A DNA stretch of 64,000 nucleotides from the NCBI RefSeq assembly GCF_058153355.1, contig NZ_CM177019.1, one strand, 5' to 3'. The notes under the pieces are model-generated. The model worked only from the letters and a program-made list of their open reading frames with translations, was not told the DNA's origin and did no database searches. Positions 27,544 through 51,760 of the stretch are shown one piece after another (position 1 is the stretch's first letter; each line of letters opens with the position of its first letter). Position numbers and translations under genes: made by a program.

Positions 27544-29112
27544 TTAGCGTGCCGGCTGAGTAGTCGTGGAAGACTGCTCAAAGTGATAGCGACCGGTTTT
27601 CAGGCTGCTTGGGCCGAGGCGTGCAAACTTGAACATTAAGAACAATTCTGCCACCAGGAACAGGGTATACAGGCCGCAAATCAGCACCATCGAGAAGATG
27701 AGATCGCCTGCGGTCAGTGACGAGTTCGCTACAGCTGTCGGCAGCACTTCACCGATAGCCCAAGGCTGGCGACCATATTCAGCCACGAACCAGCCCGCTT
27801 CTACAGCAATCCACGGCAACGGAATACCGTACAATGCGGCGCGCAGCAGCCATTTTTTCTCGCCAATACGGTTGCGGATGACACTCCAGAAAGAGAGCGC
27901 GATGATTGCCAGCAGCAGGAAGCCACACGCCACCATGATACGGAACGCGAAGTACAGCGGCGCTACACGTGGAATGGAGTCTTTGGTTGCCTGTTGAATC
28001 TGCGCTTCAGTCGCATCCGCCACGTTTGGCGTATAGCGTTTCAGCAGCAGACCGTAACCGAGGTCTTTCTTCATGCTATTGAACTGGTCACGAACCGCCT
28101 GGTCGGTAGAACCAGAACGCAGTTGCTCGAGCAGAGAGTACGCCTTCATCCCGTTACGGATGCGTTCTTCATGCTGCACCATCAGCTCTTTCAGGCCGAT
28201 AACCGGAGTATCCACGGAACGCGTGGCGATAATGCCCAGTGCGTAAGGGATTTGGATCGCAAATTTGTTCGTCTGCTCATCCTGATCAGGAATACCGAAC
28301 AGAGTAAAGGCAGCAGGCGCAGGTTGCGTTTCCCACTCGGCTTCAATAGCAGCCAGTTTGGTTTTCTGCACGTCGCCCATTTCATAACCAGATTCATCAC
28401 CCAGAACAATAACAGACAGAACGGCAGCCATACCGAAGCTGGCAGCGATAGCAAAGGAGCGTTTAGCGAAGGCGAAGTCACGACCTTTCAGCATATACCA
28501 TGCGCTGATACCGAGGATGAACATCGCGCCAGTCACATAACCAGACGCTACCGTGTGAACGAATTTCACCTGAGCAACCGGGTTAAGCACCAGCTCGGAG
28601 AAGCTCACCATCTCCATACGCATAGTTTCAAAGTTGAAATCGGATGCGATTGGGTTTTGCATCCAGCCGTTCGCAACCAGAATCCACAGTGCGGACAGGT
28701 TTGAACCAAGCGCCACCAGCCAGGTGACACACATATGCTGAACTTTACCCAGACGATCCCAACCGAAGAAGAACAGACCTACAAAGGTGGATTCGAGGAA
28801 GAAGGCCATCAGACCTTCGATTGCCAGCGGCGCACCGAAGATATCCCCTACATAGTGGGAATAGTAAGACCAGTTAGTCCCGAACTGGAACTCCATGGTC
28901 AGACCGGTTGCCACACCCAGAGCGAAGTTGATACCAAACAACTTGCCCCAGAACTTGGTCATATCTTTATAAATCTGTTTGCCGGAAAGGACGTAGACCG
29001 TTTCCATAATGGCCAGCAGGAACGCCATACCGAGCGTCAGTGGCACAAAAAGGAAGTGGTACATCGCGGTCAAGGCAAACTGTAAGCGCGACAGTTCGAC
29101 TATATCTAACAT
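27544..29112 (-). CDS. cydA: cytochrome bd-I ubiquinol oxidase subunit I
   Basis: ORF 27544..29115; second Met ([28 protein letters not shown]...) gives 522 aa. Confidence 0.95.
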
Positions 29113-29115
29113 CAT

Positions 29116-29916
29116 GACTCCTTGCTCATCGCATGAAGACTCCGAGAGTGAACCCCGTTAGAAAGGGTCACACGCATGCCCCAATACAAAATTATTTGCT
29201 CGCCTCTATCGTTGCCATTTCATCAAAAGAGGAAAAGACAATGATAAAAAAGTTACAAACATGTTAATGAATAAACCAAATTGATCCCGTAATTATATTA
29301 CGCCGCAAAATCCTTACAATAAACAGGTTTTTATTGAGCAAATTTGCATTTTTCGACAGTGATCAATTTATAGCGAAATTGTCACGATCTCACCAATTTG
29401 ATCTACGACAATTTATCGTGTTTTGCAGATTTTTTTCAAGAATTAAAAATTGATTTATATCAAAACCAACCAAATGTGTTAATTATGTATAAACCATAGA
29501 TCATTGGTGATTTTATTGTTAATTTATTGTGAAATGTTTATGCAACACAATTATTACAATGAAAAGGTATAGATAAAAAACCAGTGTTTTATTTAACAGA
29601 ACCGCCTTATCCACTTTTTATAATACCAATTGATTAGAGTAGCCAATTTGTTGCTATTTTACATAACATATTTTTATCAAAGTTAATTGATTGTTGCCTT
29701 TATGAGCATCGCCGTAAGACCGCCATGTTATTGTTTCATTTGTAATAATCACCAATAAGTATCGATGAGAGAGATATCGCTTAACAGAGGCGACTATGTC
29801 TGCATGAACACAGGCAACTTTCGCCTGATAAACGAAAAATGAGCGATTTTTGCAAGTTAGTTTTTCTATAGCCGGGTACGCTGAGCGCCTCGCTTGATTA
29901 CAATGAGGTTGCTGCC
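29116..29916. promoter_or_regulatory. long AT-rich cydAB control region
   Basis: 801-bp AT-rich non-coding region upstream of cydA with multiple TTGAT-type half-sites. Confidence 0.6.
29450..29463. promoter_or_regulatory. FNR-type binding site
   Basis: Perfect TTGAT-TTAT-ATCAA palindrome about 340 bp upstream of cydA start. Confidence 0.6.
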
Positions 29917-30861
29917 ATGGGTCTTGATAATATAGGTTCTGTTGTCAATCGCTTCTCTGGTTGGCCATCAAATGATCCTCTAAAAACAGATAACGAATCA
30001 ATGACATCACCCGTGACTGTGCAGGTAATAAAGTTGATTGCCGCCATCCTTGACCCACATCGGATAGTCGTTGGTATCGATACACTTTACACAACGCAGC
30101 GCAAAACATTTACCTCAGAGGGTCAACAGCTCATTGAATCAGCATTGCAAACACTTCATGTGATGAATTTAAATAACCTGGAAACAAATCTCGATGAGGA
30201 AGGTCACTATCTGGCTTTTGGATATAACGTTGACACTCCTGACAGAATAACCGTTTCTGCTTATAATGAAAAAAAACCTTTCTGTTATGGCCAATGTCTT
30301 TTAATACAGGATGAAGAACCAGATTTATTTAACCTGGTAAAAATTAAAACCTTTGAAGCCAGGCATAATTATGTTTCTAAATTGATGAGCGATCCGGAAT
30401 TTATGTTTAAATTCAGTTATAGCGCCCAACAAAATAGATTAGAACCTCATCTTCTGGTTCCCACTTATTTCCCTCTGAAAACAAACCAACCGGTTACGCT
30501 AGAGGATGTACTGATACTTTATCGTTTCTTTAAAATGAATGGCGATTTTAATATATTAACATCAGATGAATACATGAGTATCATGACACCTCTGATGAAG
30601 TGTGAGCGTAGTGTCCACGACCATAACAGGTATGTGACGGGCAAAGATGCTCTTCTTCTGGACAATCCTCCGTCTGGTAACCAGATATATTTCCATATTT
30701 CCCCTGACGAATCAGCAACACTTGTCCTTTATTTTTCAGACAATAACCTTGAATCCTTCGTCTTTGAAAATGATATTCCGAGCCAGTATCGACATTTCAA
30801 AATGTTTACCAATTTAGCACTAGTTATTGATCAGTTAACCGACGCCAATCAAATACTTTAA
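29917..30861 (+). CDS. hypothetical protein, 314 aa, no family recognised
   Basis: Long ORF in AT-rich DNA with GAGG 9 nt upstream of ATG; no signal peptide, no TM segment and no motif I recognise; true start may be an internal Met. Confidence 0.5.
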   Translation: MGLDNIGSVVNRFSGWPSNDPLKTDNESMTSPVTVQVIKLIAAILDPHRIVVGIDTLYTTQRKTFTSEGQQLIESALQTLHVMNLNNLETNLDEEGHYLAFGYNVDTPDRITVSAYNEKKPFCYGQCLLIQDEEPDLFNLVKIKTFEARHNYVSKLMSDPEFMFKFSYSAQQNRLEPHLLVPTYFPLKTNQPVTLEDVLILYRFFKMNGDFNILTSDEYMSIMTPLMKCERSVHDHNRYVTGKDALLLDNPPSGNQIYFHISPDESATLVLYFSDNNLESFVFENDIPSQYRHFKMFTNLALVIDQLTDANQIL

Positions 30862-30942
30862 TTTTCTATATATCCCCTATGGTAAATATTACTAAACAAT
30901 ACCTGGGGATTAATTTTTATTACTCACGGAAAGATTTAAATA

Positions 30943-31365
30943 ATGATACCATCTCAGATTTCTTTCAATACTCTTCCTGTCAATGCAACATACGCTTCAG
31001 AGACAACAGTTGACACACAAAAATTCTCTGACATCCTCTACTCTGCGGGGTGTTCCCTAAAGGATCTGGCTTATCTGAGCAGATGTCTGGCATCAATACA
31101 TCCGACTATCGCCAAAAACATTTATGAAACAGAAAATCTCAGCGTTCAAAAATTACTGCATATTGATTGCCGTAGTACAAATGAAATCAAGATAAATATC
31201 TTTTTTGGTCAGCAACGAGAAGGATTAATTGAAATTAGTTCTGACACAGTCATTTTTTCGATACTGTCTTCATTGATTGACTCAGCTATTTCTGAACATC
31301 GACATCAAATCACCGTTAACGATTCAAATAATTCTGAACTATTTTATGAGGATTATACTGATTAA
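30943..31365 (+). CDS. hypothetical protein, 140 aa, acidic C-terminus
   Basis: ORF 81 bp downstream of the 314-aa ORF, same strand and same AT-rich composition; ends ...ELFYEDYTD. Confidence 0.45.
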   Translation: MIPSQISFNTLPVNATYASETTVDTQKFSDILYSAGCSLKDLAYLSRCLASIHPTIAKNIYETENLSVQKLLHIDCRSTNEIKINIFFGQQREGLIEISSDTVIFSILSSLIDSAISEHRHQITVNDSNNSELFYEDYTD

Positions 31366-31908: not shown

Positions 31909-32358
31909 ATGAAGAAAGCAACACTTGTGATTGGCGTTATTGGCGCGGACTGCCATGCAGTAGGCAATAAAGTTCTGGACCGCGTTTTTAGCAACCATGA
32001 CTTCAGAGTCATTAATCTGGGCGTAATGGTCAGCCAGGACGAATATATTGATGCTGCCATTGAAACTGGCGCTGACGCGATTGTCGTCTCCTCTATCTAT
32101 GGGCATGGCGATATCGATTGTCTGGGCATGCGCGAACGCTGCATCGAGCGTGGGCTGGGTAACATCATGCTCTATGTGGGCGGTAACCTGGTGGTCGGAA
32201 AACATGACTTCGCTGACGTGGAAACCAAGTTCAAAGAGATGGGATTTGATCGCGTCTTTTCCCCAAGTCATGACTTAGAAGATGTTTGTCAGCTGATGGC
32301 CCACGATATCACCCAACGTCATGACGTTGATACTCGCATTCTTGAAGAGGCAATCTGA
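31909..32358 (+). CDS. glutamate mutase sigma (S) subunit, B12-binding
   Basis: ORF 31846..32358; start at ATG 31909 (AAGGA 8 nt upstream); [24 protein letters not shown]... with the DxHxxG cobalamin-binding motif (DCHAVG). Confidence 0.85.
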
Positions 32359-33746
32359 TGCAAATCGTCTCTGTCGATATTGGATCGACGTGGACCAAAG
32401 CAGCCCTCTTCACCCGGGAGGGGGACGCGTTAACGTTGGTTAACCACGTTCTGACCCCAACCACCACCCATCATCTGGCGAAAGGGTTTTTCTCCAGCCT
32501 GGACCAGGTGTTAAACGTAGATGATGCCCTCCCCCTGTTAAACAGTGGTGAGGTTGCATTGAAGTATTCCTCCTCTGCCGAAGGTGGGCTGGCGGTTGCC
32601 GCAATGGGATTGGTGCCTTCTATCACCCTGGAAACCGCGAAAGTAACCGCTCACTCTGCGGGTGCTAAAATTGCGCAATATTACGCCTACAAGCTGAACC
32701 GCCGTGATATCCAGGCACTGGAAGAAACGCAGCCCGATATTCTCTTGTTCACCGGCGGCACCGACGGCGGAGAAGAAAGCTACGGACTGAATAACGCCCG
32801 TGTGCTGGCAGAATCCAAACTCGACTGCGCCATTATTTATGCCGGAAACCGGGATATTCAGGATAAGGTGCAGGAGATCCTCGGGCATAAAGACCTGACC
32901 ATCGTCGACAACGTTCTGCCCGATCTTGACCATCCGAACCCTTTAGCTGCACGCCAGGCTATCTGCGACATATTCCTTAAACGCATCGTTAAAGGGAAAG
33001 GGCTGGATGTCATTGTTGATAAAACAGGCGAAGAACCAATGCCGACACCATGGACGGTCTTTGAACTGGTTAAGGCAATCAGTAACGTCGATCACAGCTG
33101 GAAAGAGTTCATGCTGATCGACATGGGCGGCGCAACCACCGATGTCTATTCCGCCTGTGCCAACACGCTCTCGCCCGACACTGTTTTACATGGCGTACCG
33201 GAACCCTTCGTAAAACGGACGGTGGAAGGCGATCTGGGAATGCGCGTCTCGGCAATGGTTGTTGGTGAAAGTGCGAAAGAGTTAGTCAGTGTGAATTTTG
33301 CTCAGCAACCCGCACAGTTGGACGCTTTTTATCATTACCTCCGTCATCTAGTCGCTCATCCCGACTACTTACCCGCGAATGCAGATGAAAAATATTTCGA
33401 TACCGTCCTGGCCGGACTGTGTGTGGGTTATGCCACCGAAAGACATGCGGGCACCAAAAAAGAGGTCTGCACCTGCGTCGGCAATGTCGATTTACAGATG
33501 GGACGTGATCTGACAACCGTGCGTAAAGTCGTGGGTTCCGGCGGATGGCTCTCACGTGCCAGTCAGTTCGATATGCATCACTGGTTGAAATACCGCGAGT
33601 TAAACGACGACGGTAAACGCATTCTCTTACCGACCGAATTTGAATATTACCGCGATTACCGGGGGCTATTACCACTGCTGGCAAACGTCGCCAGAGTCGA
33701 TCCGCTGGCCGCCGCGCGCACCAGTATTCAATGCTTAACCCTATAA
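32358..33746 (+). CDS. glutamate mutase L component (ASKHA-fold putative reactivase/chaperone)
   Basis: 462-aa ORF with TGATG overlap to the S-subunit gene; N-terminal [18 protein letters not shown] actin-like ATPase motif; sits between S and E genes. Confidence 0.75.
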   Translation: MQIVSVDIGSTWTKAALFTREGDALTLVNHVLTPTTTHHLAKGFFSSLDQVLNVDDALPLLNSGEVALKYSSSAEGGLAVAAMGLVPSITLETAKVTAHSAGAKIAQYYAYKLNRRDIQALEETQPDILLFTGGTDGGEESYGLNNARVLAESKLDCAIIYAGNRDIQDKVQEILGHKDLTIVDNVLPDLDHPNPLAARQAICDIFLKRIVKGKGLDVIVDKTGEEPMPTPWTVFELVKAISNVDHSWKEFMLIDMGGATTDVYSACANTLSPDTVLHGVPEPFVKRTVEGDLGMRVSAMVVGESAKELVSVNFAQQPAQLDAFYHYLRHLVAHPDYLPANADEKYFDTVLAGLCVGYATERHAGTKKEVCTCVGNVDLQMGRDLTTVRKVVGSGGWLSRASQFDMHHWLKYRELNDDGKRILLPTEFEYYRDYRGLLPLLANVARVDPLAAARTSIQCLTL

Positions 33747-33764
33747 CAATTAAGGCTGCAATCA

Positions 33765-35210
33765 ATGGAACTTCGAAATAAGAAATTAACCCATGACGAA
33801 TTCATGACCGAGCGGCAACAGGTATTGAAAACCTGGGAAACCGGCAAGGATGTTGAAAACTTTGAAGATGGCGTTAAATACCAACAAACCATTCCTGAGC
33901 ATAAACGCTTCTCTCATGCCCTGCTGAAAGCAGACAAGGAAGGTAAAACCCTTAGCCAACCGCGCGCAGGCGTGGCGCTGATGGACGAACACATCGAACT
34001 ACTGAAAACACTACAAGAAGAGTGCGATCTGCTGCCGAGCACTATCGATGCATATACCCGTCTGAATCGGTACGAAGAAGCGGCTGTAGGGATTAAAAAA
34101 TCCATCGAAGCCAGAACCTCTAAACTGAACGGTTTACCGGTAGTTAACCACGGCGTCGCAGCTTGCCGTCGCCTCACCGAAACTCTGCAAAAACCGCTAC
34201 AGATCCGCCACGGCACGCCAGATGCGCGTCTGCTGGCTGAAATCTCGATGGCCAGCGGCTTTACCAGTTATGAAGGCGGCGGCATTTCCTACAATATTCC
34301 GTATGCCAAGCGCGTAACGCTGGAAAAATCGATCCGCGACTGGCAGTACTGCGACCGTTTAATGGGGATGTATGAAGAACACGGGATCCGCATCAACCGC
34401 GAACCGTTTGGCCCACTAACGGGTACGCTGATCCCGCCGTTTATCTCGCACTCTATCGCGATAATCGAAGGCTTGCTGGCACTGGAACAGGGTGTGAAAT
34501 CTATTACCGTTGGTTATGGACAGGTCGGCAGCCTGACGCAGGATGTCGCGGCGATCCAGTCTCTGCGTGAACTTGCACACGAATACTTTCAGAGCTATGG
34601 CTATACCGACTATGAATTAAGTACCGTATTTCACCAGTGGATGGGCGGCTTTCCGGAGGACGAATCGAAAGCGTTCGCCATTATCTCCTGGGGTGCTGCC
34701 GTCGCGGGGATGTCTGGTGCTACCAAAGTCATCACCAAAAGTCCGCACGAAGCCTGGGGCATCCCGACTGCTGCTGCCAACATTCAGGGGCTAAAAGCCT
34801 CCCGCCAGATGCTCAACATGGTCAACGAGCAGAAATTCCCGCCGTGCCCGGCGGTTGAACTGGAAATTGAACTGATTAAGAGCGAGGTTCGCGCTGTACT
34901 GAACAAAGTGTTCGAACTGGGTAATGGTGATATTGCGCGCGGTACGGTGCTGGCATTTGAAGCGGGCGTACTGGATGTACCGTTTGCCCCAGCCGCCTGC
35001 AACGCAGGCAAAATTCTTCCGGTCCGTGACAACACCGGCGCGATACGCGTACTGGAAGCCGGAGCCGTTCCATTGCCAAAAGATATTCTCGACCTCCACC
35101 ACGATTACGTTGCTGAACGCGCACGCTTTGAAGGACGCCAACCGACATTCCAGATGGTTGTAGATGACATCAATGCTGTATCCCACAGTAAATTAATAGG
35201 AAGACCATAA
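33765..35210 (+). CDS. glutamate mutase epsilon (E) catalytic subunit
   Basis: 481-aa ORF; size and position (S-L-E-methylaspartase order) match the clostridial glutamate mutase operon as recalled. Confidence 0.8.
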   Translation: MELRNKKLTHDEFMTERQQVLKTWETGKDVENFEDGVKYQQTIPEHKRFSHALLKADKEGKTLSQPRAGVALMDEHIELLKTLQEECDLLPSTIDAYTRLNRYEEAAVGIKKSIEARTSKLNGLPVVNHGVAACRRLTETLQKPLQIRHGTPDARLLAEISMASGFTSYEGGGISYNIPYAKRVTLEKSIRDWQYCDRLMGMYEEHGIRINREPFGPLTGTLIPPFISHSIAIIEGLLALEQGVKSITVGYGQVGSLTQDVAAIQSLRELAHEYFQSYGYTDYELSTVFHQWMGGFPEDESKAFAIISWGAAVAGMSGATKVITKSPHEAWGIPTAAANIQGLKASRQMLNMVNEQKFPPCPAVELEIELIKSEVRAVLNKVFELGNGDIARGTVLAFEAGVLDVPFAPAACNAGKILPVRDNTGAIRVLEAGAVPLPKDILDLHHDYVAERARFEGRQPTFQMVVDDINAVSHSKLIGRP

Positions 35211-36451
35211 TGAAAATAAAACAGGCCCTTTTCACCGCTGGCTACTCTTCATTCTATTTCGATGACCAGCAGGCGATAAAAAACGGAGCGGGTCACGACG
35301 GCTTTTTTTATACCGGAGAGCCGGTAACACAGGGGTTTAACGCCGTACGTCAGGCCGGGGAGTGCGTTTCGGTTCAGTTGATTCTGGAAAACGGTGCGGT
35401 CGCCGTAGGCGACTGTGCTGCCGTACAGTATTCCGGGGCAGGCGGTCGCGATCCACTGTTCCTCGCAGAGCACTTTATTCCGTTCCTCAACGACCATATC
35501 AAGCCATTACTGGTAGGCCGCGATGTGGATGCTTTCCTGCCGAATGCCCGTTTCTTCGACAAATTGCGTATTGACGGAAACTTGCTGCATACCGCCGTAC
35601 GTTACGGATTATCACAGGCGCTGCTTGATGCTACCGCGCTGGCAACCGGCCGTCTAAAAACTGAAGTGGTCTGTGATGAATGGCAGTTGCCACGCGTGGC
35701 GGAATCCATTCCATTATTTGGTCAGAGCGGCGACGATCGATATATCGCTGTCGATAAGATGATCCTTAAGGGCATCGACGTGCTACCTCATGCGCTGATT
35801 AATAACGTCGAAGAGAAACTGGGCTTTAAAGGAGAAAAACTGCGCGAATATGTCCGTTGGCTATCCGATCGGATTCTAAGCAAACGCACCAGCGCACGCT
35901 ACCACCCTACCCTGCACATCGATGTATACGGCACTATTGGTCTGATCTTCGATATGGATCCGCTTCGCTGTGCGCAATACATCGCCAGTCTGGAAAAAGA
36001 GGCGCAAGGCCTGCCGCTCTACATTGAGGGGCCGGTCGATGCCGGTAACAAGCCCGATCAAATTCGCCTGCTGACCGCGATTACCAAAGAGCTGACGCGC
36101 CTCGGTTCCGGCGTGAAAATTGTGGCCGATGAATGGTGTAACACCTACCAGGATATTGTTGATTTCACTGATGCCGCCAGTTGCCACATGGTGCAAATCA
36201 AAACCCCGGATCTGGGCAGTATTCACAACATCGTCGATGCAGTTCTTTATTGCAACAGCCACAGCATGGAAGCGTACCAGGGCGGCACCTGCAATGAAAC
36301 CGATGTCAGCGCCCGCACGTGTGTCCACGTCGCCCTTGCCGCTCGCCCTATGCGTATGCTGGTAAAACCGGGGATGGGCTTTGACGAAGGCCTCGATATC
36401 GTCTTCAACGAAATGAATCGTACTATCGCGCTGTTGCAGGCTAAGGATTAA
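35210..36451 (+). CDS. mal: 3-methylaspartate ammonia-lyase (methylaspartase)
   Basis: 413-aa ORF MKIKQALFTAGYSSFYFDDQQAIKNGAGHDGFFYTGEPVT...; strong resemblance to recalled clostridial/Citrobacter methylaspartase (same length; conserved HMVQIKTPDLG, NETN and KPGMG blocks); TAATG overlap with E subunit. Confidence 0.9.
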   Translation: MKIKQALFTAGYSSFYFDDQQAIKNGAGHDGFFYTGEPVTQGFNAVRQAGECVSVQLILENGAVAVGDCAAVQYSGAGGRDPLFLAEHFIPFLNDHIKPLLVGRDVDAFLPNARFFDKLRIDGNLLHTAVRYGLSQALLDATALATGRLKTEVVCDEWQLPRVAESIPLFGQSGDDRYIAVDKMILKGIDVLPHALINNVEEKLGFKGEKLREYVRWLSDRILSKRTSARYHPTLHIDVYGTIGLIFDMDPLRCAQYIASLEKEAQGLPLYIEGPVDAGNKPDQIRLLTAITKELTRLGSGVKIVADEWCNTYQDIVDFTDAASCHMVQIKTPDLGSIHNIVDAVLYCNSHSMEAYQGGTCNETDVSARTCVHVALAARPMRMLVKPGMGFDEGLDIVFNEMNRTIALLQAKD

Positions 36452-36454
36452 CAA

Positions 36455-37825
36455 ATGGCTCGTTCTTTTAAAGTCTTATCGCCAACGGCAATCCTCGGGT
36501 ATGGATTCCCGGAAGAGAGCTTCCGCAAAGCGATGGCAGAATCGCCCGATCTGATCGCCGTTGATGCAGGCTCTTCCGATCCTGGCCCCCACTACCTCGG
36601 GGCGGGCAAACCGTTTACCGATCGCGCAGGGGTCAAACGCGATCTACGCTATATGATCACCGCAGGCGTGCAAAATAATATACCGGTGGTGATCGGAACG
36701 GCCGGCGGTTCTGGTGCAGCTCCACACCTGGAGTGGTGCCGAGAAATAATTCATGAGATTGCCCGGGAAGAGCACCTCGCGTTCTCGATGGCGCTGATCC
36801 CGGCAGACGTTGACAAAGCCATCGTCCACCAGGCGCTGGATAACGGCAAAATCACGGCGCTGGATTTTGTCCCGCCGTTAACCCACGACGCGATTGACGA
36901 AAGTACGTATATCGTCGCGCAAATGGGCGTCGAACCCTTCCAGCAGGCGCTGAAAGAAGGCGCGCAAGTGGTGCTGGGCGGGCGCGCTTACGACCCGGCC
37001 TGCTTTGCTGCGCTACCGATCATGCAAGGCTTTGATGAAGGTCTGGCGCTGCATTGTGGGAAAATCCTTGAATGCGCGGCAATCGCCGCAACGCCCGGCT
37101 CAGGCTCTGACTGTGCGATGGGCATCATTGATGACAACGGCTTTACGCTGAAGACATTTAATCCGAAGCGTAAATTTACCGAAACGTCAGCGGCTGCACA
37201 CACACTGTATGAGAAATCCGATCCCTACTTCCTGCCAGGACCTGGCGGCGTGTTGAACCTGAAAGGTTGCACATTTAAAGCGATCAATGATGGCGAAGTT
37301 TACGTCAGCGGTTCTAAGCATGAAGAAACGCCCTATGCCCTGAAACTGGAAGGTGCGCGGCGGGTGGGTTTCCGCTGTTTGACCATCGCCGGAACGCGCG
37401 ACCCGATCATGATCGCCGGGATCGATAACATCATCGATGAAGTCAAAACCAGCGTTTCGCGTAATCTGTCCTTAGACGATGACAGCATTCGCATCAATTT
37501 CCACCTGTACGGCAAAAACGGGGTGATGGGTAACCATGAACCGATGCAAACTGCCGGGCATGAGCTGGGGATTGTCCTTGATGTAGTTGCACCGACCCAG
37601 GAAATTGCCAACAGCGTTTGCTCGCTGGTGCGCTCTACCATGCTGCACTACGGCTATGAAAACCGCATCGCTACCGCAGGCAACCTGGCGTTCCCGTTCT
37701 CCCCTTCTGATATCCAGGGCGGGCCGGTATACGAATTTTCCATATATCACCTGATTGAAGCCAACGACGCTCTGCGTTTTGATTTCCATATTGAACAGGT
37801 GACGCCAGAAGGAGTTCAGGCATGA
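36455..37825 (+). CDS. conserved protein of unknown function, DUF1446 (AtuA-like), 456 aa
   Basis: ORF starts 4 nt after methylaspartase stop; family assignment from memory of AtuA-like proteins, not from a search. Confidence 0.6.
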   Translation: MARSFKVLSPTAILGYGFPEESFRKAMAESPDLIAVDAGSSDPGPHYLGAGKPFTDRAGVKRDLRYMITAGVQNNIPVVIGTAGGSGAAPHLEWCREIIHEIAREEHLAFSMALIPADVDKAIVHQALDNGKITALDFVPPLTHDAIDESTYIVAQMGVEPFQQALKEGAQVVLGGRAYDPACFAALPIMQGFDEGLALHCGKILECAAIAATPGSGSDCAMGIIDDNGFTLKTFNPKRKFTETSAAAHTLYEKSDPYFLPGPGGVLNLKGCTFKAINDGEVYVSGSKHEETPYALKLEGARRVGFRCLTIAGTRDPIMIAGIDNIIDEVKTSVSRNLSLDDDSIRINFHLYGKNGVMGNHEPMQTAGHELGIVLDVVAPTQEIANSVCSLVRSTMLHYGYENRIATAGNLAFPFSPSDIQGGPVYEFSIYHLIEANDALRFDFHIEQVTPEGVQA

Positions 37826-38139
37826 AACAGTCAATTGTCTCACTGGCGCAAGTCATTCGTTCGAAAAATGCCGGACCTTACGAACTGGTTTTAGATATTT
37901 TATTTAAAACGAAAGAAAACTATGAGCGAGTAAAATCATCAGGGCAATTAACCCCAGAACTGATTGCGCGCTTATATCATGTTGAACCTGACTTTATTCA
38001 TCGTATTGTCTGGTTTGATCCTTCTAACGCAGTAAAAATTGTCATGCCACGAGATATTATCTCCGGGAATGTAGGTGACAATGATGTCTATGGCGCACAG
38101 CAACATGCACCTTTATTAAATATGAGTTTCGATTTGTAA
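37822..38139 (+). CDS. small conserved protein, DUF4387-like partner, 105 aa
   Basis: ATGA overlap with the preceding ORF; AT-rich; DUF1446/DUF4387 pairing is from memory. Confidence 0.5.
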   Translation: MKQSIVSLAQVIRSKNAGPYELVLDILFKTKENYERVKSSGQLTPELIARLYHVEPDFIHRIVWFDPSNAVKIVMPRDIISGNVGDNDVYGAQQHAPLLNMSFDL

Positions 38140-38225
38140 AAATCCGAACACTTTTAGCCAACTGACATCCCGTCACTTATTGCAGCTCAACACTTCAGCT
38201 ATTTGTAAGGTTGTTATAGCAGGTA

Positions 38226-38251
38226 GATGCCTGAATCTCTATTCAGGCATC
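38226..38251 (+). other. perfect 11-bp-stem hairpin between the DUF4387-like gene and the transporter
   Basis: gatgcctgaat-ctct-attcaggcatc; followed by pyrimidine-rich sequence but no clean T-run. Confidence 0.4.
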
Positions 38252-38299
38252 CACTTCTCCTGATTCTGATTTATCGCCGTGCACCTGATGGAGGAAAAA

Positions 38300-39580
38300 A
38301 TGAAGAAAATAAGTTTAACCACGATGATTCTTTTGGCGCTGGTACTTGGAATGATTATCGGCGTAGTGCTCAATAACACTGCTTCACCGGAAACAGCAAA
38401 ACTCTATGCGCAAGAAATATCGATATTCACGACGATTTTCTTACGACTGATAAAAATGATTATCGCTCCGTTAGTGGTCTCTACCCTGGTGGTAGGTATT
38501 GCTAAAATGGGCGATGCCAAAGCCCTTGGTCGTATTTTTTCTAAAACACTCTTTTTATTTATTTGCGCCTCATTGCTGTCAATTGCCTTAGGCTTGATAA
38601 CGGTAAATTTCTTCATGCCAGGCACAGGAATTAATTTTGTTGCACACGGTGCCGAAACCACCGGAGTGGTCGCGTCAGAACCCTTTACACTAAAAGTATT
38701 TATTTCGCATGCTTTCCCCACCAGCATTGTCGATGCCATGGCGCACAATGAAATTTTGCAAATCGTGGTGTTCTCAATTTTCCTCGGCTGTAGCCTGACG
38801 GCGATTGGTGAGAAAGGCAGCGCCATCGTTCACGCCTTAGATTCGCTGGCACATGCCATGTTAAAGCTCACTGGCTACGTCATGCTCTTCGCTCCCCTGA
38901 CCGTATTCGCCGCTATTTCAGCATTGATTGCTGAACGAGGACTGGCAGTTATGGTGAGCGCCGGGATCTTTATGGGTGAATTTTATTTCACCATGTTATT
39001 ACTTTGGGTGCTGCTTATCGGTCTGGCCATCGTTTATGTCGGCCCCTGCATCAGACGCCTGACCCGCGCCCTTTCAGAACCCGCCCTGCTGGCATTTACC
39101 ACATCCAGTTCTGAAGCTGCTTTTCCGGGAACGCTTGAAAAACTGGAGCAATTTGGCGTTTCCCCCAAAATTGCCAGCTTTGTCTTACCCATTGGCTACT
39201 CATTTAATCTCGTTGGATCAATGGCCTACTGCTCCTTCGCCACAGTTTTCATCGCCCAGGCCTGCAATATCCATTTATCCATCGGTGAGCAAATCACCAT
39301 GCTGTTGATCCTGATGTTGACCTCGAAAGGAATGGCTGGCGTACCACGCGCCTCAATGGTGGTTATCGCCGCCACGCTCAACCAGTTCAATATTCCGGAA
39401 GCGGGGCTGATCTTGCTGATGGGCGTTGATCCGTTCCTTGATATGGGGCGTTCCGCGACAAACGTCATGAGCAACGCAATGGGCGCTGCGATGGTGAGTC
39501 GGTGGGAAGGCGAACATTTCGGCGAGGGTTGTCGGGGTAAAGCATTAAAACCCAATGAATCGAACGTTGCTCTGCCCTGA
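38300..39580 (+). CDS. dicarboxylate/amino acid:cation symporter (DAACS)-family transporter
   Basis: ORF 38279..39580; start at ATG 38300 (GGAGG 5 nt upstream); polytopic membrane protein resembling GltP/DctA-type symporters. Confidence 0.7.
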   Translation: MKKISLTTMILLALVLGMIIGVVLNNTASPETAKLYAQEISIFTTIFLRLIKMIIAPLVVSTLVVGIAKMGDAKALGRIFSKTLFLFICASLLSIALGLITVNFFMPGTGINFVAHGAETTGVVASEPFTLKVFISHAFPTSIVDAMAHNEILQIVVFSIFLGCSLTAIGEKGSAIVHALDSLAHAMLKLTGYVMLFAPLTVFAAISALIAERGLAVMVSAGIFMGEFYFTMLLLWVLLIGLAIVYVGPCIRRLTRALSEPALLAFTTSSSEAAFPGTLEKLEQFGVSPKIASFVLPIGYSFNLVGSMAYCSFATVFIAQACNIHLSIGEQITMLLILMLTSKGMAGVPRASMVVIAATLNQFNIPEAGLILLMGVDPFLDMGRSATNVMSNAMGAAMVSRWEGEHFGEGCRGKALKPNESNVALP

Positions 39581-39687
39581 GGGAGATCTTAAGCAATCAG
39601 AAGCCAATGACTACGCATTTTTATAAGCCGGATCATGAAGTTAGACGGCAATTAAGTAACACTAACGTTTAAGGTGAAAAGTGAAAT

Positions 39688-41340
39688 ATGTCCAAACCAT
39701 TTATCTGGCAAGAACCGTTTCTACAAAATAAAGACGGTACAGAATATACATTAATTAGCGATCAACATATTACAGTAACGGAATTAGACGGCGAAGAAGT
39801 AATAAAAATCGCTCCTGAAGCATTAACGCTGCTTGCCCGGCAGGCATTTTATGAAGCCTCTTTTTTCTTACGTTCCGCTCATTTGCAACAGGTCGCCAGC
39901 ATTCTTAACGATCCGCAGGCCAGCAGTAATGATAAATACGTTGCGTTGCAGTTATTACGTAATGCTGAAGTCTCAGCAAAAGGGGTATTACCCAACTGTC
40001 AGGATACCGGCACCGCAACTATTGTTGCCAGTAAAGGGCAACAGATATGGACCGGAGGCAACGACGCCGAAGCCTTAAGCAAAGGCATTTACACCACTTT
40101 TCAGGAAAATAATTTGCGCTTTTCACAAAATGCGCCGCTGGATATGTATACCGAAGTCAATACGTACACCAATCTACCGGCGCAGATTGATATCAGCGCC
40201 GTCGCTGGTGATGAGTACCATTTTCTCTGTATTAATAAAGGGGGCGGCTCCGCCAATAAAGCCGCACTTTATCAGGAAACCAAATCCTTATTGCAACCAG
40301 AAAAACTGACCGCATTTTTAATCGAAAAAATGAAATCGCTGGGCACCGCTGCCTGCCCGCCTTACCACATCGCCTTTGTCGTCGGAGGGCTTTCAGCCGA
40401 TCAAACCTTAAAAGTTGCCAAGCTGGCCTCTACGAAATATTACGACAATTTGCCCACCAGCGGAAACGAGCAGGGACAAGCATTCCGTGATATTGAGCTG
40501 GAAAAAGCGTTGCTCGAAGCCAGTCAGCAATTTGGTATTGGTGCGCAATTTGGGGGTAAATATTTCGCTCATGATATTCGCGTCATTCGTCTGCCGCGTC
40601 ACGGTGGCTCCTGCCCGATAGCTATGGCGCTCTCCTGTTCTGCCGATCGCAATATCAAAGCAAAAATTAACAAGCATGGTATCTGGCTGGAAAAACTCGA
40701 ACACAATCCGGGGCAATATATTCCAGCCTCACTGCGGGAAGAAAATCACGCGCAACATGTACAGCTGGATCTAAACCGTCCGTTGCGTGACGTGATGCAG
40801 GATCTCGCCAGATTACCGGTAGGCACCCGCGTGTCGTTAAGTGGTCCCATCGTAGTGGCGCGCGATATCGCCCACGCCAAAATAAAAGCGCGGCTGGATA
40901 GCGGCGAATCGATGCCGGATTATCTGAAGCATCATATTGTCTATTACGCTGGCCCGGCGAAAACACCGGAGAACATGGCCTGCGGTTCACTGGGTCCAAC
41001 CACGGGCGGTCGAATGGACGGTTATGTCGAAACCTTCCAGGCGGCTGGCGGCAGTCTGGTAATGTTATCGAAAGGTAACCGCAGCCAGCAGGTCACCGAT
41101 GCCTGTCACAAACATGGCGGCTTCAATCTGGGAAGTATTGGCGGTGCAGCTGCGTTACTGGCGCAAGAATATGTCAAAAGTCTGCGTTGCCTGGAATACC
41201 CGGAGCTGGGTATGGAAGCGGTGTGGATGATGGAAGTGGAAAATCTGCCCGCATTCATCCTGGTCGATGATAAAGGCAATAATTTCTTTAGTCAGTTTGA
41301 GCAGCAACACCGCTGCGCCAGTTGCCCTGCGGGACATTAA
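39688..41340 (+). CDS. fumD: class I (Fe-S) fumarate hydratase paralog, probable mesaconase/fumarase
   Basis: 550-aa ORF colinear with E. coli FumA/FumB as recalled ([70 protein letters not shown]); symbol fumD is from memory of the O157:H7 mesaconase. Confidence 0.8.
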
Positions 41341-41349
41341 GGAAAATGA

Positions 41350-41952
41350 ATGGAAGCGCGAATTTCAACTGAACGGCATGTGCAGCGCCAGCAGAAATTG
41401 AAGGAACAGGTCGATACGCGCGTCGCGGCGGCGATAGAGAAAAAAGGGATCTTGATTGTTTTCACCGGCAACGGCAAAGGGAAATCCACTGCCGCGTTTG
41501 GTACTGTGACGCGCGCGGTGGGTCATGGCAAAACGGTGGGGGTTGCGCAGTACATCAAGGGGCAATGGGACAACGGCGAATACAACCTTCTCCAGCCGCT
41601 GGGGGTTGAGTTTCATATTATGGGAACCGGTTTTACCTGGGAGACTCAGAACCGGCAAGCGGATATCGACGCGGCGAAAGAGGTCTGGTCGGAAAGCAAA
41701 CGGATGCTGGCTGACAAGCGTTACGACTTAGTGGTGCTTGATGAGCTGACCTATATGCTGGCTTACCATTATCTGGACACCGAAGAAGTGATCACTTCTC
41801 TGCAAAACCGCCCGGCACAACAAAGTGTCATTGTCACCGGACGCAGTTGCCACAGTCAGATATTAAAAATGGCGGATACGGTCAGCGAAATCCGCCCCGT
41901 CAAACATGCTTTTGATAACGGCATTCAGGCGCAGCCGGGTATCGACTGGTAA
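41350..41952 (+). CDS. cob(I)alamin adenosyltransferase (CobA/BtuR family)
   Basis: 200-aa ORF with P-loop GNGKGKST and close resemblance to E. coli BtuR as recalled (VFTGNGKGK.TAAFGT.TRAVGHGK, LDELTYM, ELRPVKHAF). Confidence 0.85.
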   Translation: MEARISTERHVQRQQKLKEQVDTRVAAAIEKKGILIVFTGNGKGKSTAAFGTVTRAVGHGKTVGVAQYIKGQWDNGEYNLLQPLGVEFHIMGTGFTWETQNRQADIDAAKEVWSESKRMLADKRYDLVVLDELTYMLAYHYLDTEEVITSLQNRPAQQSVIVTGRSCHSQILKMADTVSEIRPVKHAFDNGIQAQPGIDW

Positions 41953-41985
41953 TAACTGCGCCTGGCATCCCGCCAGGCGCAGGTT

Positions 41986-42891
41986 TTACATCTCCTGCGG
42001 TACGACCGATTTCGCCAGCAACCATTCACGAAATTGCTGCAAGTGCGGCGAGTCAGACTTCTCTTCCTGCCACGTCATAATAAAACGATTACCGGTACGA
42101 ATAGGCACATCACAGGGAATCACCATATCGCCACTATCCAAATCATGTTGAATAGCGAACCGTGGTAACAGCGCCACGCCGAGATTAGAGCGCACGGCGG
42201 CAATCAGCATTGAAAGCAAATCGAAACGTGGTCCGTTATTGACCAGCGGACTGCTAACGCCAGATAAAGCAAACCACTCTTCCCAGCCAGTAATACGGGT
42301 GCTTTGATGCAGAAGTGGTAACTCAGTAAGCAGTTCTGCCACTGAAAGTTTTTGATCGGACATTGCAAGCAAACTGCCGCTGCATACCGGCAAAATCTCC
42401 TCTTCAAAGAGATATTCTACTTCCGCCCAGGGCGCGCAAAAATTTTCGCGCATAATGACAGCATCGTACTCCCGATTAAGAAAATCGCCGTTATTAGCTA
42501 AAGAATGAATATTAACAATAATATCGGGATGTAACTTTGTGAATTCATGTAAATTTGGGATTAACCAGTGGGTACTAAACGTAGGATTAACGGCAAGTTC
42601 AATAACCTGAACCGTAGGCTGCCAGGTCATAATCGTATTGGTATCGCGTTCCAGCTTATTTAATGTTTCTTTTACTATCCCCAGGTAATACTTCCCTGCA
42701 TCATTAAGAAAAATGCGTTTTTTAGAGTGTGAAAATAGCGGAGTATGTAAAAATTCCTCCAGCGCACTTACTTGTCTGAATACAGCACTTTGGGTTAACG
42801 CTAACTCCTCTGCCGCTCTGGTATAGCTTTCATGACGTGCGACGACCTCAAAAGTCACCAGCAGCTCCGTTTTAGGTATTTTTCCTCGCAT
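41986..42891 (-). CDS. LysR-family transcriptional regulator
   Basis: ORF 41986..42921; start set at internal Met (MRGKIPKTELLVTFEVVARHESYTRAAEELALTQSAVFRQVSALEE, LysR HTH); 42921 is an alternative start; convergent with the adenosyltransferase gene, divergent from the RtcB-like gene. Confidence 0.8.
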   Translation of the reverse strand: MRGKIPKTELLVTFEVVARHESYTRAAEELALTQSAVFRQVSALEEFLHTPLFSHSKKRIFLNDAGKYYLGIVKETLNKLERDTNTIMTWQPTVQVIELAVNPTFSTHWLIPNLHEFTKLHPDIIVNIHSLANNGDFLNREYDAVIMRENFCAPWAEVEYLFEEEILPVCSGSLLAMSDQKLSVAELLTELPLLHQSTRITGWEEWFALSGVSSPLVNNGPRFDLLSMLIAAVRSNLGVALLPRFAIQHDLDSGDMVIPCDVPIRTGNRFIMTWQEEKSDSPHLQQFREWLLAKSVVPQEM

Positions 42892-43480
42892 AATGCCGTC
42901 CGTGAAAAAATAACAATTCAAAAATTATTTTATAAAAAACAGTAGCACTAATGAATATCATAATTCAAATAAACAAACCAGTCAGCTATATGTCTAACCA
43001 GGAAAATAAAGTGACAATAATCCTAAAACAGGAATTTCACCTCAGTTATCCGCATGCAATACTTTAAAGCTATTATTGCAAGAATATTATTCATATACAT
43101 GAATATACTCTAAATAAGTCAAGTTGCAGGAAGGGAACAAATAATGAATTTCCAGAAGCTTACATAAGTAAGTGACCTGGGTGAGCGAACATCGATGCAG
43201 CACATGCAACTTGAATTATGACAAGTATACAATGATAAATTTATATACCCTATGTTATATATTATCTATGTCCGGTTAGATTGAATGAGTCATAGCCTTA
43301 AAAGACTTCACAAAAGATAATTCCTCTTTAACAATAAGCCAGATTTACCACTTGTAAAACTTGCTATCGCCACATACACTACGCGCGTTTTCTTTCCCTT
43401 TTGCTGGCTGCTGACCGGAAAGACAAAATTACCCTCGCAATACAGGGGGTTGATTAACGTCTATATTTCAGGACAGCGTT

Positions 43481-44878
43481 ATGCATCATCTTTCAAGGCT
43501 TGATAAAGCCTTTCTGCGCAAAGGGATCCAACTTTCCCGCGCCAACAATATTGTTTCATTATGTCGTCCATCAGGAGCCAGTGCCCGCGTACTGCTGCCG
43601 GACGAACTGCCGCTGGAAGAAAAAGCAGTAACACAACTGCTTGATTTTGCAGAAGTGAAGCTACCAGACCACCCAGGTTATGTGCGCCAGACGTGCGCGA
43701 CGCCAGATTTTCATCCCGGCAATGGCGTCCCCGTTGGCGCGGTGGTGGCCTCAACGCCGGATTTAGTCATTCCCGCCGCCATCGGCACCGATATTTCTTG
43801 TGGCATGCGGCTGCTGACGACCGGATTAACACTTGAGCAAGCCGAAGCGCATAAAGACGTCATCGCTCAGCGGTTAACGCAAGTGCTACTGCAAAATGAG
43901 CGCGATGTTCCGTTATCCGCACAGGCGTTCACCGCGCTTTTTGATGGCGGACCGGCAGATTGCGTGTCGACCTTGCCATCAGCAGGTCTCTGGACACGCA
44001 CGAATATCCCCCGAATGGTACAAGAGATTGACCGCTGCATTGGGCTTAACGAGCATAACAGTCATTCGCGTTATGCCCCACCCGCCCTGCTGGCAACGGA
44101 CCGCGCATTACTCCGCGATCCTTGTCTTGGTACGCCGGGTTCAGGTAATCATTTTATTGAACTTCAGGTCGTTGATAGCGTGGTTGATCGCCATGTAGCC
44201 TGGCAACAAGGGCTGAAAACAGGCGATATTGTGGTGATGATCCACAGTGGATCGCGAGATGTTGGCTTTTACGTCGGAAGACGCTGGATGGATCGCGCCC
44301 GTGCTGAATGGCCCACCGGACATAAACATCCACAAAGCGGGTTATATGGTCTGGCAGGCGGACTGGCGGAGGAATATCTACAAGCGATAGGAATGGCGGC
44401 GCGTTACGCGTGGTTAAATCGCGTGACAATTGCCGAAATGGTGCGCGTATGTCTTGCCAATCTCTTTCATCAGGACAATTCGCATCTGGTGGTGGATGTG
44501 CCACATAACATCATCCTTCGCGAGCATGAAATGAATATTCATCGCAAAGGCGCAACACCGGCACGAGTGGGCAATCTGGCGTTAATCCCCGGTTCAATGG
44601 GCGATTATTCGTGGCTTGCGGTAGGTTGCGGCAACCCGGAGTGGCTGTGGTCTTGCAGTCACGGAGCAGGACGCAGCCAGCGTCGGCAGGCCATGCGCTC
44701 ACGCGCGACTGAAGAGTCAACGTTGCCGTGGCAATGCGTCACATTGCGCGAAGAACGGCGTATTGAAGAAGCGCCAGCTGCTTATAAAGATATTGGTCCG
44801 GTTATCGAAGCCCAACAAGAGGCCGGATTAATTCATCCAGCGGTTAGATTCCGACCGTGGTTAACGTTTAAAGCATAA
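43481..44878 (+). CDS. RtcB-family RNA ligase paralog, 465 aa
   Basis: Conserved RtcB blocks aligned by eye to E. coli RtcB: IPAAIGTDISCGM, GSGNHFIE, MIHSGSRDVG, IPGSMGDYS, CSHGAGR, AAYKDI. Confidence 0.8.
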   Translation: MHHLSRLDKAFLRKGIQLSRANNIVSLCRPSGASARVLLPDELPLEEKAVTQLLDFAEVKLPDHPGYVRQTCATPDFHPGNGVPVGAVVASTPDLVIPAAIGTDISCGMRLLTTGLTLEQAEAHKDVIAQRLTQVLLQNERDVPLSAQAFTALFDGGPADCVSTLPSAGLWTRTNIPRMVQEIDRCIGLNEHNSHSRYAPPALLATDRALLRDPCLGTPGSGNHFIELQVVDSVVDRHVAWQQGLKTGDIVVMIHSGSRDVGFYVGRRWMDRARAEWPTGHKHPQSGLYGLAGGLAEEYLQAIGMAARYAWLNRVTIAEMVRVCLANLFHQDNSHLVVDVPHNIILREHEMNIHRKGATPARVGNLALIPGSMGDYSWLAVGCGNPEWLWSCSHGAGRSQRRQAMRSRATEESTLPWQCVTLREERRIEEAPAAYKDIGPVIEAQQEAGLIHPAVRFRPWLTFKA

Positions 44879-44975
44879 AAAAGGCCATCATACGATGGCC
44901 AACCATGTCGAAACCGACAGCCCTTCGCCATTCCTGTAGAGGGAAGCGGCGAGGGCTATTTCTTATTACAGATAT
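44877..44975 (-). ncRNA. sdhX: sucD 3'-UTR-derived small RNA (SdhX-like) ending at an intrinsic terminator
   Basis: Minus-strand region after sucD stop ends ggccatcgtatgatggcc + U6; assignment rests on recalled position of SdhX. Confidence 0.45.
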
Positions 44976-45845
44976 TTATTTCAGAACAGTTTTCAGTGCT
45001 TCACCGATATCCGCCAGGCTGCGAACGGTTTTCACGCCTGCGGCTTCCAGAGCAGCAAATTTCTCATCCGCAGTCCCTTTCCCACCGGCAATGATGGCAC
45101 CCGCGTGGCCCATACGTTTGCCTTTCGGCGCAGTTACACCAGCGATGTAACCTACAACTGGCTTGGTAACGTGCTCTTTGATGTACGCAGCCGCTTCTTC
45201 TTCAGCGCTACCGCCGATCTCACCGATCATCACGATCGCTTCGGTCTGCGGATCTTTTTCGAACATTTCGAGGATGTCGATAAAGTTAGAGCCTGGGATC
45301 GGGTCGCCGCCGATACCGACACAGGTCGACTGACCGAAACCGTAATCCGTGGTCTGTTTAACCGCTTCATAGGTCAGTGTACCGGAACGGGAAACGATAC
45401 CCACTTTACCCGGTTTGTGAATGTGACCAGGCTGGATGCCGATTTTACATTCACCCGGAGTGATAACGCCTGGGCAGTTCGGGCCGATCATGCGTACGCC
45501 AGCTTCGTCCAGTTTCACTTTCACCGTCAGCATATCCAGCGTCGGGATGCCTTCAGTGATGGTGATAATCAGTTTGATACCTGCGTCGATGGCTTCCAGA
45601 ATGGAGTCTTTGCAGAACGGAGCCGGTACGTAGATAACAGAAGCGGTAGCGCCAGTGGCAGCAACGGCTTCACGCACAGTGTTGAACACCGGCAGACCGA
45701 GGTGGGTAGTACCGCCTTTACCAGGGGTTACGCCGCCAACCATTTTAGTGCCGTATGCAATGGCCTGTTCAGAGTGGAAAGTCCCCTGGCTACCAGTAAA
45801 GCCCTGGCAGATAACCTTGGTGTTTTTATCAATTAAAATGGACAT
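44976..45845 (-). CDS. sucD: succinyl-CoA synthetase alpha subunit
   Basis: 289-aa [48 protein letters not shown]... Confidence 0.95.
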
Positions 45846-47084: not shown

Positions 47085-47255
47085 TGTCGGTCACCCGTAG
47101 GCCTGATAAGACGCGCAAGCGTCGCATCAGGCATCGCGTGTCGGATGCGGCGCGAGCGCCTTATCCGACCTACATTGATGGTCCCCGTAGGCCTGATAAG
47201 ACGCGTCAGCGTCGCATCAGGCTTCAATTGCCGGAGAAAGCGATAATGCCTCATC
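47085..47255. repeat. REP/BIME cluster between sucB and sucC
   Basis: Alternating GC-rich palindromes cgtaggcctgataagacgcg...cgtcgcatcaggc and gtcggatgcggcgcgagcgccttatccgacctaca. Confidence 0.6.
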
Positions 47256-51475: not shown

Positions 51476-51760
51476 GATTTCCTGCATTTCTTTTGTAGGC
51501 CGGATAAGGCGTTCACGCCGCATCCGGCGCTGTTTGCCTGATGCGACGCTTGCGCGTCTTATCAGGCCTACGATTCCTGCATTTCTTTTGTAGGCCGGAT
51601 AACGCATTCACGCCGCATCCGGCACTGGTTGCCTGATGCGACGCTTGCGCGTCTTATCAGGCCTACGATTTCTGCATTTCTTTTGTAGGCCGGATAAGGC
51701 GTTCACGCCGCATCCGGCACTGGTTGCCTGATGCGACGCTTGTGCGTCTTATCAGGCCTG
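51476..51760. repeat. three tandem ~95-bp REP/BIME units between sdhB and sucA
   Basis: Unit gatttctgcatttcttttgtaggccggataaggcgttcacgccgcatccggcactggttgcctgatgcgacgcttgcgcgtcttatcaggcctac repeated three times with a few substitutions. Confidence 0.7.

Follow-up and report, generated by a model that had tools for sequence, protein, structure and literature searches.

In the 64-kb stretch of DNA analysed here (the window), a gene for an RtcB-family RNA ligase paralogue and sucD, the last gene of sdhCDAB-sucABCD, converge on a single hairpin, and the stop codon of the RtcB gene reaches into the run of six adenines (A6) that flanks this hairpin. This raises the question of whether the hairpin is a terminator shared by two convergent genes, or a terminator of the sucD transcript against which the neighbouring gene happens to end. 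The features on which the answer depends are the following.

43481–44878, plus strand: RtcB-family RNA ligase paralogue of 465 aa (ORF list), convergent with sucD, with the C-terminus ...RPWLTFKA*
44871–44875, no strand: recombination joint, 2–6 nt outside A6 (BLAST maps and junction table)
44876–44878, plus strand: TAA stop codon of the RtcB gene; its T flanks A6 and its two A's are the first two bases of A6
44877–44882, minus strand: U6 tail of the sdh-suc/SdhX terminator (A6 on the plus strand); predicted SdhX 3′ end at 44877
44883–44900, minus strand: terminator stem-loop GGCCAUC-GUAU-GAUGGCC with a 7-bp stem (terminator scan and fold)
44902–44912, minus strand: SdhX seed UUCGACAUGGU, directly 5′ of the stem, which starts at 44900; plus-strand complement AACCAUGUCGAA
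44919–44957, minus strand: SdhX 5′ stem-loop (SL1), folding at −24.4 kcal/mol (z = −5.5); its plus-strand complement folds at −24.2 kcal/mol (z = −4.3)
44958–44967, plus strand: AUUUCUUAUU, a U-rich tail after the plus-strand version of SL1; presumably the sole terminator-like site for RtcB read-through
44976–45845, minus strand: sucD, 289 aa, with its stop codon at 44976–44978 (named in RefSeq in matching genomes)

The hairpin downstream of sucD

The plus strand of the window reads ...CGTTTAAAGCA-TAA-AAAA-GGCCATC-ATAC-GATGGCC-AACCATGTCGAAACC... and contains the inverted repeat GGCCATC/GATGGCC, with the loop ATAC, at 44883–44900. On the minus strand, GGCCAUCGUAUGAUGGCC is followed by UUUUUUAUGC, 76 nt past the sucD stop codon, and the terminator scan finds here a G+C-rich hairpin of seven pairs (five of them G-C) with a loop of four, followed by U6. 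The sucD 3′ UTR thus delimited runs from 44975 to 44877, on the same strand as sucD and immediately past its stop codon, and this is the location of SdhX. The hairpin folds at −11.5 kcal/mol (shuffled sequences, −2.7 ± 1.8 kcal/mol; z = −5.0), and GGCCATCNNNNGATGGCC occurs once in the 64-kb window and in none of 100 shuffles. By itself, the terminator scan performed no better than chance in the window (four matches, with 4.0 ± 2.2 expected from the shuffled window), and the generic terminator and promoter scan was dropped as a test of significance because its match counts were not above those of shuffles. Since the generic scan alone is not significant, support for the terminator comes from conservation, folding and published 3′-end mapping. 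A block around the hairpin is matched in 5,425 of 5,426 complete E. coli genomes, and the stem does not vary among the 11 locus contexts sampled, in which the loop alone differs (ATAC or ATAA). The 14-mer GGTTTCGACATGGT gave at least 120 matches across 298 Gb of contigs, most of them due to chance, as the pattern is too short; among the matches listed, the informative one is from E. albertii (contig L066), and a match in Citrobacter (L052) lies in coding sequence.

In E. coli and Salmonella, RNase E cleavage of the sdhCDAB-sucABCD mRNA releases from its 3′ end the Hfq-dependent sRNA SdhX (RybD), which has this same hairpin as its Rho-independent terminator, preceded by the published seed, UUCGACAUGGU (Miyakoshi et al. 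2019, PMC6393394). In a pairwise comparison, positions 44877–44990 of the window, from U6 to past the sucD stop codon, are identical to BL21(DE3), and up to the end of U6 the window also agrees base for base with the K-12 Term-seq string. The position after sucD, the seed 5′ of the stem and the 7-bp G+C-rich stem with U6 are all shared with SdhX of K-12 and BL21; the difference from K-12 lies only beyond U6, where the first base is G in K-12 and A in the window. De Mets and colleagues reportedly also described SdhX in 2019 as an sRNA derived from the sucD 3′ UTR. A search of Rfam 15, at the gathering threshold and at E ≤ 10, returned no match to an SdhX family; the sole match was isrD, which covers the terminator only and is weak (E = 0.45; 17 bits with a cut-off of 37). 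The assignment to SdhX therefore rests on the identity with K-12 and BL21 and on the literature.

Term-seq of K-12 places a 3′ end at 765148 (+), the sixth U at the boundary between ...GGCCUUUUUU and GUGCUUAUCG (PMC7815308, supplementary file 1). This end is strong, with 19,842 and 34,704 mean reads in two conditions, and is the sole curated 3′ end that the table gives between 764,900 and 765,199 (PMC7815308). The strings in the table include 50 nt upstream, as checked on its SgrS entry. K-12 765148 corresponds in the window to 44877, the central position of the RtcB TAA, and by analogy we infer that SdhX ends at approximately 44877 in the window strain as well. Judged by its sequence and the K-12 data, the hairpin with U6 is the intrinsic terminator of sdhCDAB-sucABCD and of SdhX, an element already known. 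Much of the original prediction is borne out here: the TAA at 44876–44878 does lie within the T+A6 flank of the hairpin, all coordinates agree with the sequence, and the proposal that the hairpin is the U-tailed intrinsic terminator of the sucD 3′ UTR agrees with the BL21 identity, the seed 5′ of the stem and the K-12 Term-seq end at the sixth U.

Elsewhere in the same operon, the sucB-sucC and sdhB-sucA spacers carry four REP/BIME-type repeats (Rfam naRNA4, 75–87 bits), at 47100–47170 on the minus strand and at 51498–51568, 51593–51663 and 51688–51758 on the plus strand.

The RtcB-family gene

The protein encoded at 43481–44878 is matched by PF01139 along the full length of the domain (residues 63–464; model positions 7–425 of 426; E = 8.6e-95). 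An alignment to PDB 2epg recovers PDFHxGxG, DIxCG, GSGNHF, HSGSR, HRKGA and HGAGR, so that the metal-binding and His-GMP motifs of the RtcB family (PF01139) are present, and the ORF also matches structures 1uc2 and 4dwq. RefSeq labels the matching position in matching genomes 'RtcB family protein'. The protein belongs to a subgroup of approximately 465 aa that is common in Pseudomonas and Betaproteobacteria; proteins from Pseudomonas, Burkholderia, Variovorax and Chitinivorax share 60–67% identity with it and likewise end in ...TFKA, a C-terminus that is the same in 114 of 120 homologues. The canonical RtcB of the E. coli rtcBA operon is a different protein, and in an NCBIfam search the window protein scores under the cut-offs of both the PrfH-associated and the canonical equivalog models. 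The argument for a foreign origin of the gene is that its closest relatives outside Escherichia come from Pseudomonas and Betaproteobacteria. Base composition was dropped as a sign of such an origin, the GC content of 0.46–0.53 being unremarkable.

The gene is an orphan beside a divergent LysR regulator gene, and the spacer upstream of it is AT-rich, with weak promoter-like matches in a promoter scan. Within this LysR-RtcB intergenic region, at approximately 43150–43215, lies a putative ERIC/IRU-like repeat fragment (...GCTTACATAAGTAAGTGACCTGGGTGAGCG...), which resembles the ERIC consensus. In 2020CK-00188, a histidine-utilisation cluster of approximately 8.6 kb (L001, 3331–11973), with genes for an ammonia-lyase, hutG, hutI, HutD, a permease and hutU, stands in place of the AT-rich part of this region (window 42910–43372), and the linkage of hut genes to RtcB recurs in the diverged contig L126.

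Convergent neighbours and the recombination joint

In BLAST comparisons, the homologous DNA starts at 44871 against mngR-type genomes and at 44875 against both E. albertii and E. coli of the TPR type. The position of the joint coincides with the last codon of RtcB, 3–4 nt from A6, and with breakpoints spread over 2–6 nt from A6 the original prediction that variable and conserved DNA meet at the terminator holds to within a few nucleotides. The variable segment between cydA (27544–29115) and sucD extends from approximately 29752–30969 to 44870 and comprises a methylaspartate/glutamate-mutase cluster, a dicarboxylate symporter, a class I fumarase, cobO, the LysR regulator and RtcB. The methylaspartate-pathway set in this segment (32358–41952) is absent from K-12; besides the symporter, fumarase and cobO genes it includes two mutase-like ORFs, a methylaspartate ammonia-lyase (35210–36451) and genes for AtuA and DUF4387 proteins.

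Different genes occupy the position opposite sucD in different strains. In K-12 and BL21, the convergent gene at this terminator is mngR, whose stop codon lies 4 nt before A6 (GAT-AAG-CAC-AAAAAA-GGCC), and a junction of this kind is found in 3,884 of the 5,426 complete genomes (approximately 72%). An intact RtcB gene fused to the terminator as in the window is annotated in RefSeq in 156 genomes (approximately 3%), in 137 of which LysR also adjoins RtcB as it does in the window, and the order RtcB-[mngB-mngA-mngR]-terminator, seen in elppa5, occurs in 134. The LysR-RtcB-sucD order is found in 2013C-4282, N96 and WL297, with 98.9% identity to the window over 41300–45000. Degraded RtcB remnants at the same joint are present in about 820–960 genomes and mngR without RtcB in about 3,750, both counts being estimates obtained from evenly spaced rows and by subtraction. 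The remaining several hundred genomes have a TPR-type or other arrangement.

A T precedes A6, making TAA, in nine of the 11 sampled locus contexts; BL21 (K-12-type flank) and 2014C-3655 have C. The T+A6 flank is carried by E. coli of the RtcB type, the RtcB-remnant type (SCU-313, O157:H7), the mngR type (ST131, elppa5) and the TPR type, and also by the Logan contig L126, whose DNA is approximately 20% diverged, and by E. albertii, in which an unrelated, unannotated ORF of 114 aa without a Pfam match stops at the same TAA. Going by these sequences, the conserved flank already contained the TAA. The mngR-sucD junction of K-12 and BL21 shares with the window the terminator, a convergent ORF ending at or just outside A6 and the flank GCA[T/C]AAAAAAGG. 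It differs in having C in place of T (K-12, BL21, 2014C-3655) and in its partner, a GntR/UTRA-type repressor rather than an RNA ligase; the stop codon of mngR lies 4 nt off in K-12, whereas that of the RtcB paralogue overlaps the last two U's of the SdhX tail. A convergent gene at the SdhX terminator is thus an ordinary arrangement and not peculiar to the acquired gene. To present the convergence as a peculiarity of that gene, as had been done, is misleading, because mngR converges likewise in approximately 72% of genomes and the K-12 SdhX end is still strong; by this precedent, a convergent neighbour is compatible with robust formation of the SdhX 3′ end.

Two other arrangements bear on how the joint may have arisen. 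In elppa5, TTTAAGG and CATAAAAAAGG exactly flank a 5.6-kb mng cassette, and RtcB there has a stop codon of its own and ends in TFKG*. In L126, RtcB (TFKG*, TGA) is followed by 190 nt, a TPR gene and then ...GACGCATAATAAAAAAGGCC. RtcB accordingly ends in TFKA* if directly fused to the flank and in TFKG* with its own stop if a cassette intervenes, and the GCATAA flank outside the terminator is common to three left neighbours, namely RtcB, mngR and the TPR gene of L126 (window 44871–44878; L005 9466–9480 and 15078–15093; L126 7385–7400 and 8900–8915). The occurrence of TFKA* in 114 of 120 homologues would suggest that direct fusion of RtcB to the terminator is the native state. Together with the exact cassette edges in elppa5, it suggested that the last RtcB codon might survive as a relic in K-12, in the GCAC that separates mngR from A6, an idea that we downgraded after L126. 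Because RtcB has its own stop codon in L126 and is followed there by the TPR gene and then by the GCATAA flank, two histories would account about equally well for the joint: either the last codon of RtcB became joined to the core flank by a deletion, or a spacer of zero length received cassettes while selection preserved RtcB as well as the terminator. No homology is detectable between the sequences 3′ of RtcB in L126 and in elppa5 (local score 10; shuffles 9.8 ± 1.7). That the RtcB ORF ends exactly at the family-consensus C-terminus could mean that the joint is under selection, beyond a neutral packing accident.

In elppa5, a second hairpin, GGCCATC-CGAA-GATGGCC (L005 9565–9582), exactly repeats the 7-bp stem that the SdhX terminator has at window 44883–44900; its loop differs, its flanks are unrelated and its tails are weakly U-rich on both strands. 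It sits in the RtcB-mngB spacer in the 134 genomes with both genes. The mngRAB genes of elppa5 (L005 9621–15081) are 95% identical to those of BL21 (L002 541–6002) overall and 82–89% identical in the 3′ third of mngB, which suggests a mosaic allele.

Termination on the two strands

Bidirectional terminators between convergent E. coli genes are said to have been found by SEnd-seq in the work of Ju and colleagues of 2019, and the hairpin had been predicted to be such an element. A shared terminator of this kind, whether weakly intrinsic or driven by collision, would end the RtcB and sucD transcripts within one 18-bp element. The layout is compatible with it, as the convergent genes, RtcB (+) ending at 44878 and sucD (−) at 44976, stand either side of a single hairpin with zero spacer, and the folding energy of the hairpin, −11.5 kcal/mol, does not differ between the strands. 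A single stable hairpin in which the A-run of one strand is the U-run of the other is also what the window shares with the bidirectional terminators of convergent E. coli genes (ynaJ-uspE model, bioRxiv 10.1101/2022.10.23.513370), and those of the collision type are hairpin pause sites that do not need canonical U tracts (bioRxiv 10.1101/2022.10.23.513370). The window differs from them in that the second side of its hairpin lacks a T-run and that its K-12 equivalent lacks listed 3′ ends on the second strand.

This asymmetry is pronounced. The sequence that follows the hairpin on the plus strand, AACCAUGUCG, has no U tract; the tail there is AACCAUGU, with two U's in eight, and that on the minus strand is UUUUUUAU. 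The simple terminator scan reports no plus-strand terminator at the hairpin. The T-run is missing on this side because the sequence there is a functional sRNA seed, and its complementarity to the SdhX seed leaves the plus-strand tail no freedom to turn into a U-tract. A ribosome terminating at 44876–44878 would moreover cover the 5′ arm of the hairpin, which begins 4 nt downstream, and oppose its folding in coupled transcription. At the mngR/sucD equivalent in K-12, the Term-seq table (PMC7815308) gives the sucD-strand 3′ end only and lists none on the convergent (mngR) strand, which low mngR expression may explain. Taken together, the absence of a plus-strand U tract, of a plus-strand scan match and of a listed convergent-strand end in K-12 speaks against the original prediction on this point: the hairpin is not supported as a sequence-defined bidirectional terminator, and we regard a truly shared terminator, including one driven by collision, as unlikely. 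It is possible, by analogy with such elements, that the hairpin acts as a pause or roadblock for polymerases on the RtcB strand.

The U-rich tail at 44958–44967 was missed by the simple scan because its rule bars a bulged stem or a long loop. Beyond the junction in K-12, a Rho-dependent region is reported at 765604 (+), antisense in mngR, in a table that does not give transcript starts (PMC7815308, supplementary file 2); read-through of the SdhX terminator is one possible source of these transcripts.

Discussion

We consider it probable that the hairpin is a unidirectional sdh-suc/SdhX terminator, and that the stop codon came to be embedded in it as a side effect of a recombination joint next to a conserved sRNA terminator that has a TAA in its flank. 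We propose that (i) the element serves as the Rho-independent terminator of sdhCDAB-sucABCD and, as hairpin plus U6, provides the 3′ Hfq-binding module of RNase E-processed SdhX; (ii) termination would take place on the minus strand alone, yielding an RNA that ends at approximately 44877; (iii) at the joint, variable DNA would meet the conserved terminator, and the GCA TAA of RtcB would run into the T+A6 flank; and (iv) RtcB transcripts would meet a stable hairpin without a U-tract and would probably for the most part read on, antisense to SdhX, to 44958–44967 or into sucD. The RtcB gene ends with zero spacer because the joint lies 2–6 nt outside the U-tract, and as its last codon and stop run into the T+A6 flank, 2 nt would be common to the RtcB ORF and mature SdhX, an overlap that would be a consequence of packing, not a dedicated shared terminator.

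As no U-tract stops the RtcB strand, an RtcB mRNA passing the hairpin (in K-12, an mngR mRNA) would be a perfect antisense of the whole of SdhX. The junction could on this basis be a cis-antisense device, in which RtcB read-through RNA, perhaps under control of the divergent LysR gene, acts on SdhX by titration, by RNase III cleavage or by lowering sdh-suc termination through polymerase collision. Such a device would fit the absence of a plus-strand terminator before the SdhX antisense region and the position of the earliest U-rich tail, which comes only past the SL1 complement, and any read-through RNA would contain the seed complement (CCAUGUCGAA). Against it, the same geometry with mngR coexists in K-12 with a very abundant SdhX 3′ end; the RtcB partner is dispensable, since roughly 800–950 genomes have no more than a degraded remnant of it at the same joint; and the AT-rich region upstream of RtcB offers only weak promoter-like matches. 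We therefore hold an antisense function of this kind to be highly improbable. We would give just as little credence to the related notion, read from the sequence, that the zero-spacer joint ties the amount of SdhX, and hence acetate/TCA control, to the expression of an accessory RNA-repair ligase linked to LysR, through RNase III or polymerase collision. An ORF of 81 aa at 44905–45150 on the plus strand, probably spurious, has its ATG in the seed complement (CCATGTCGAA) and extends into sucD in antisense orientation.

With the unidirectional terminator as the preferred reading, the finding matters little beyond annotation, as the element is the characterised SdhX terminator. Modulation of SdhX by transcription of a neighbour would, if real, give acetate/TCA regulation an input that varies between strains; nothing in our analysis points to it, and strains of the window type, approximately 3% of complete E. 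coli genomes, should make normal SdhX ending at approximately 44877. The edge of the highly variable cydA-sucD segment is marked, give or take a few nucleotides, by the conserved sRNA terminator. Accessory genes found at this edge, RtcB and mngR among them, have their ends at the T+A6 flank or a few nucleotides away from it, and the TAA of this flank serves as the stop codon both for RtcB and for the unannotated ORF of E. albertii.
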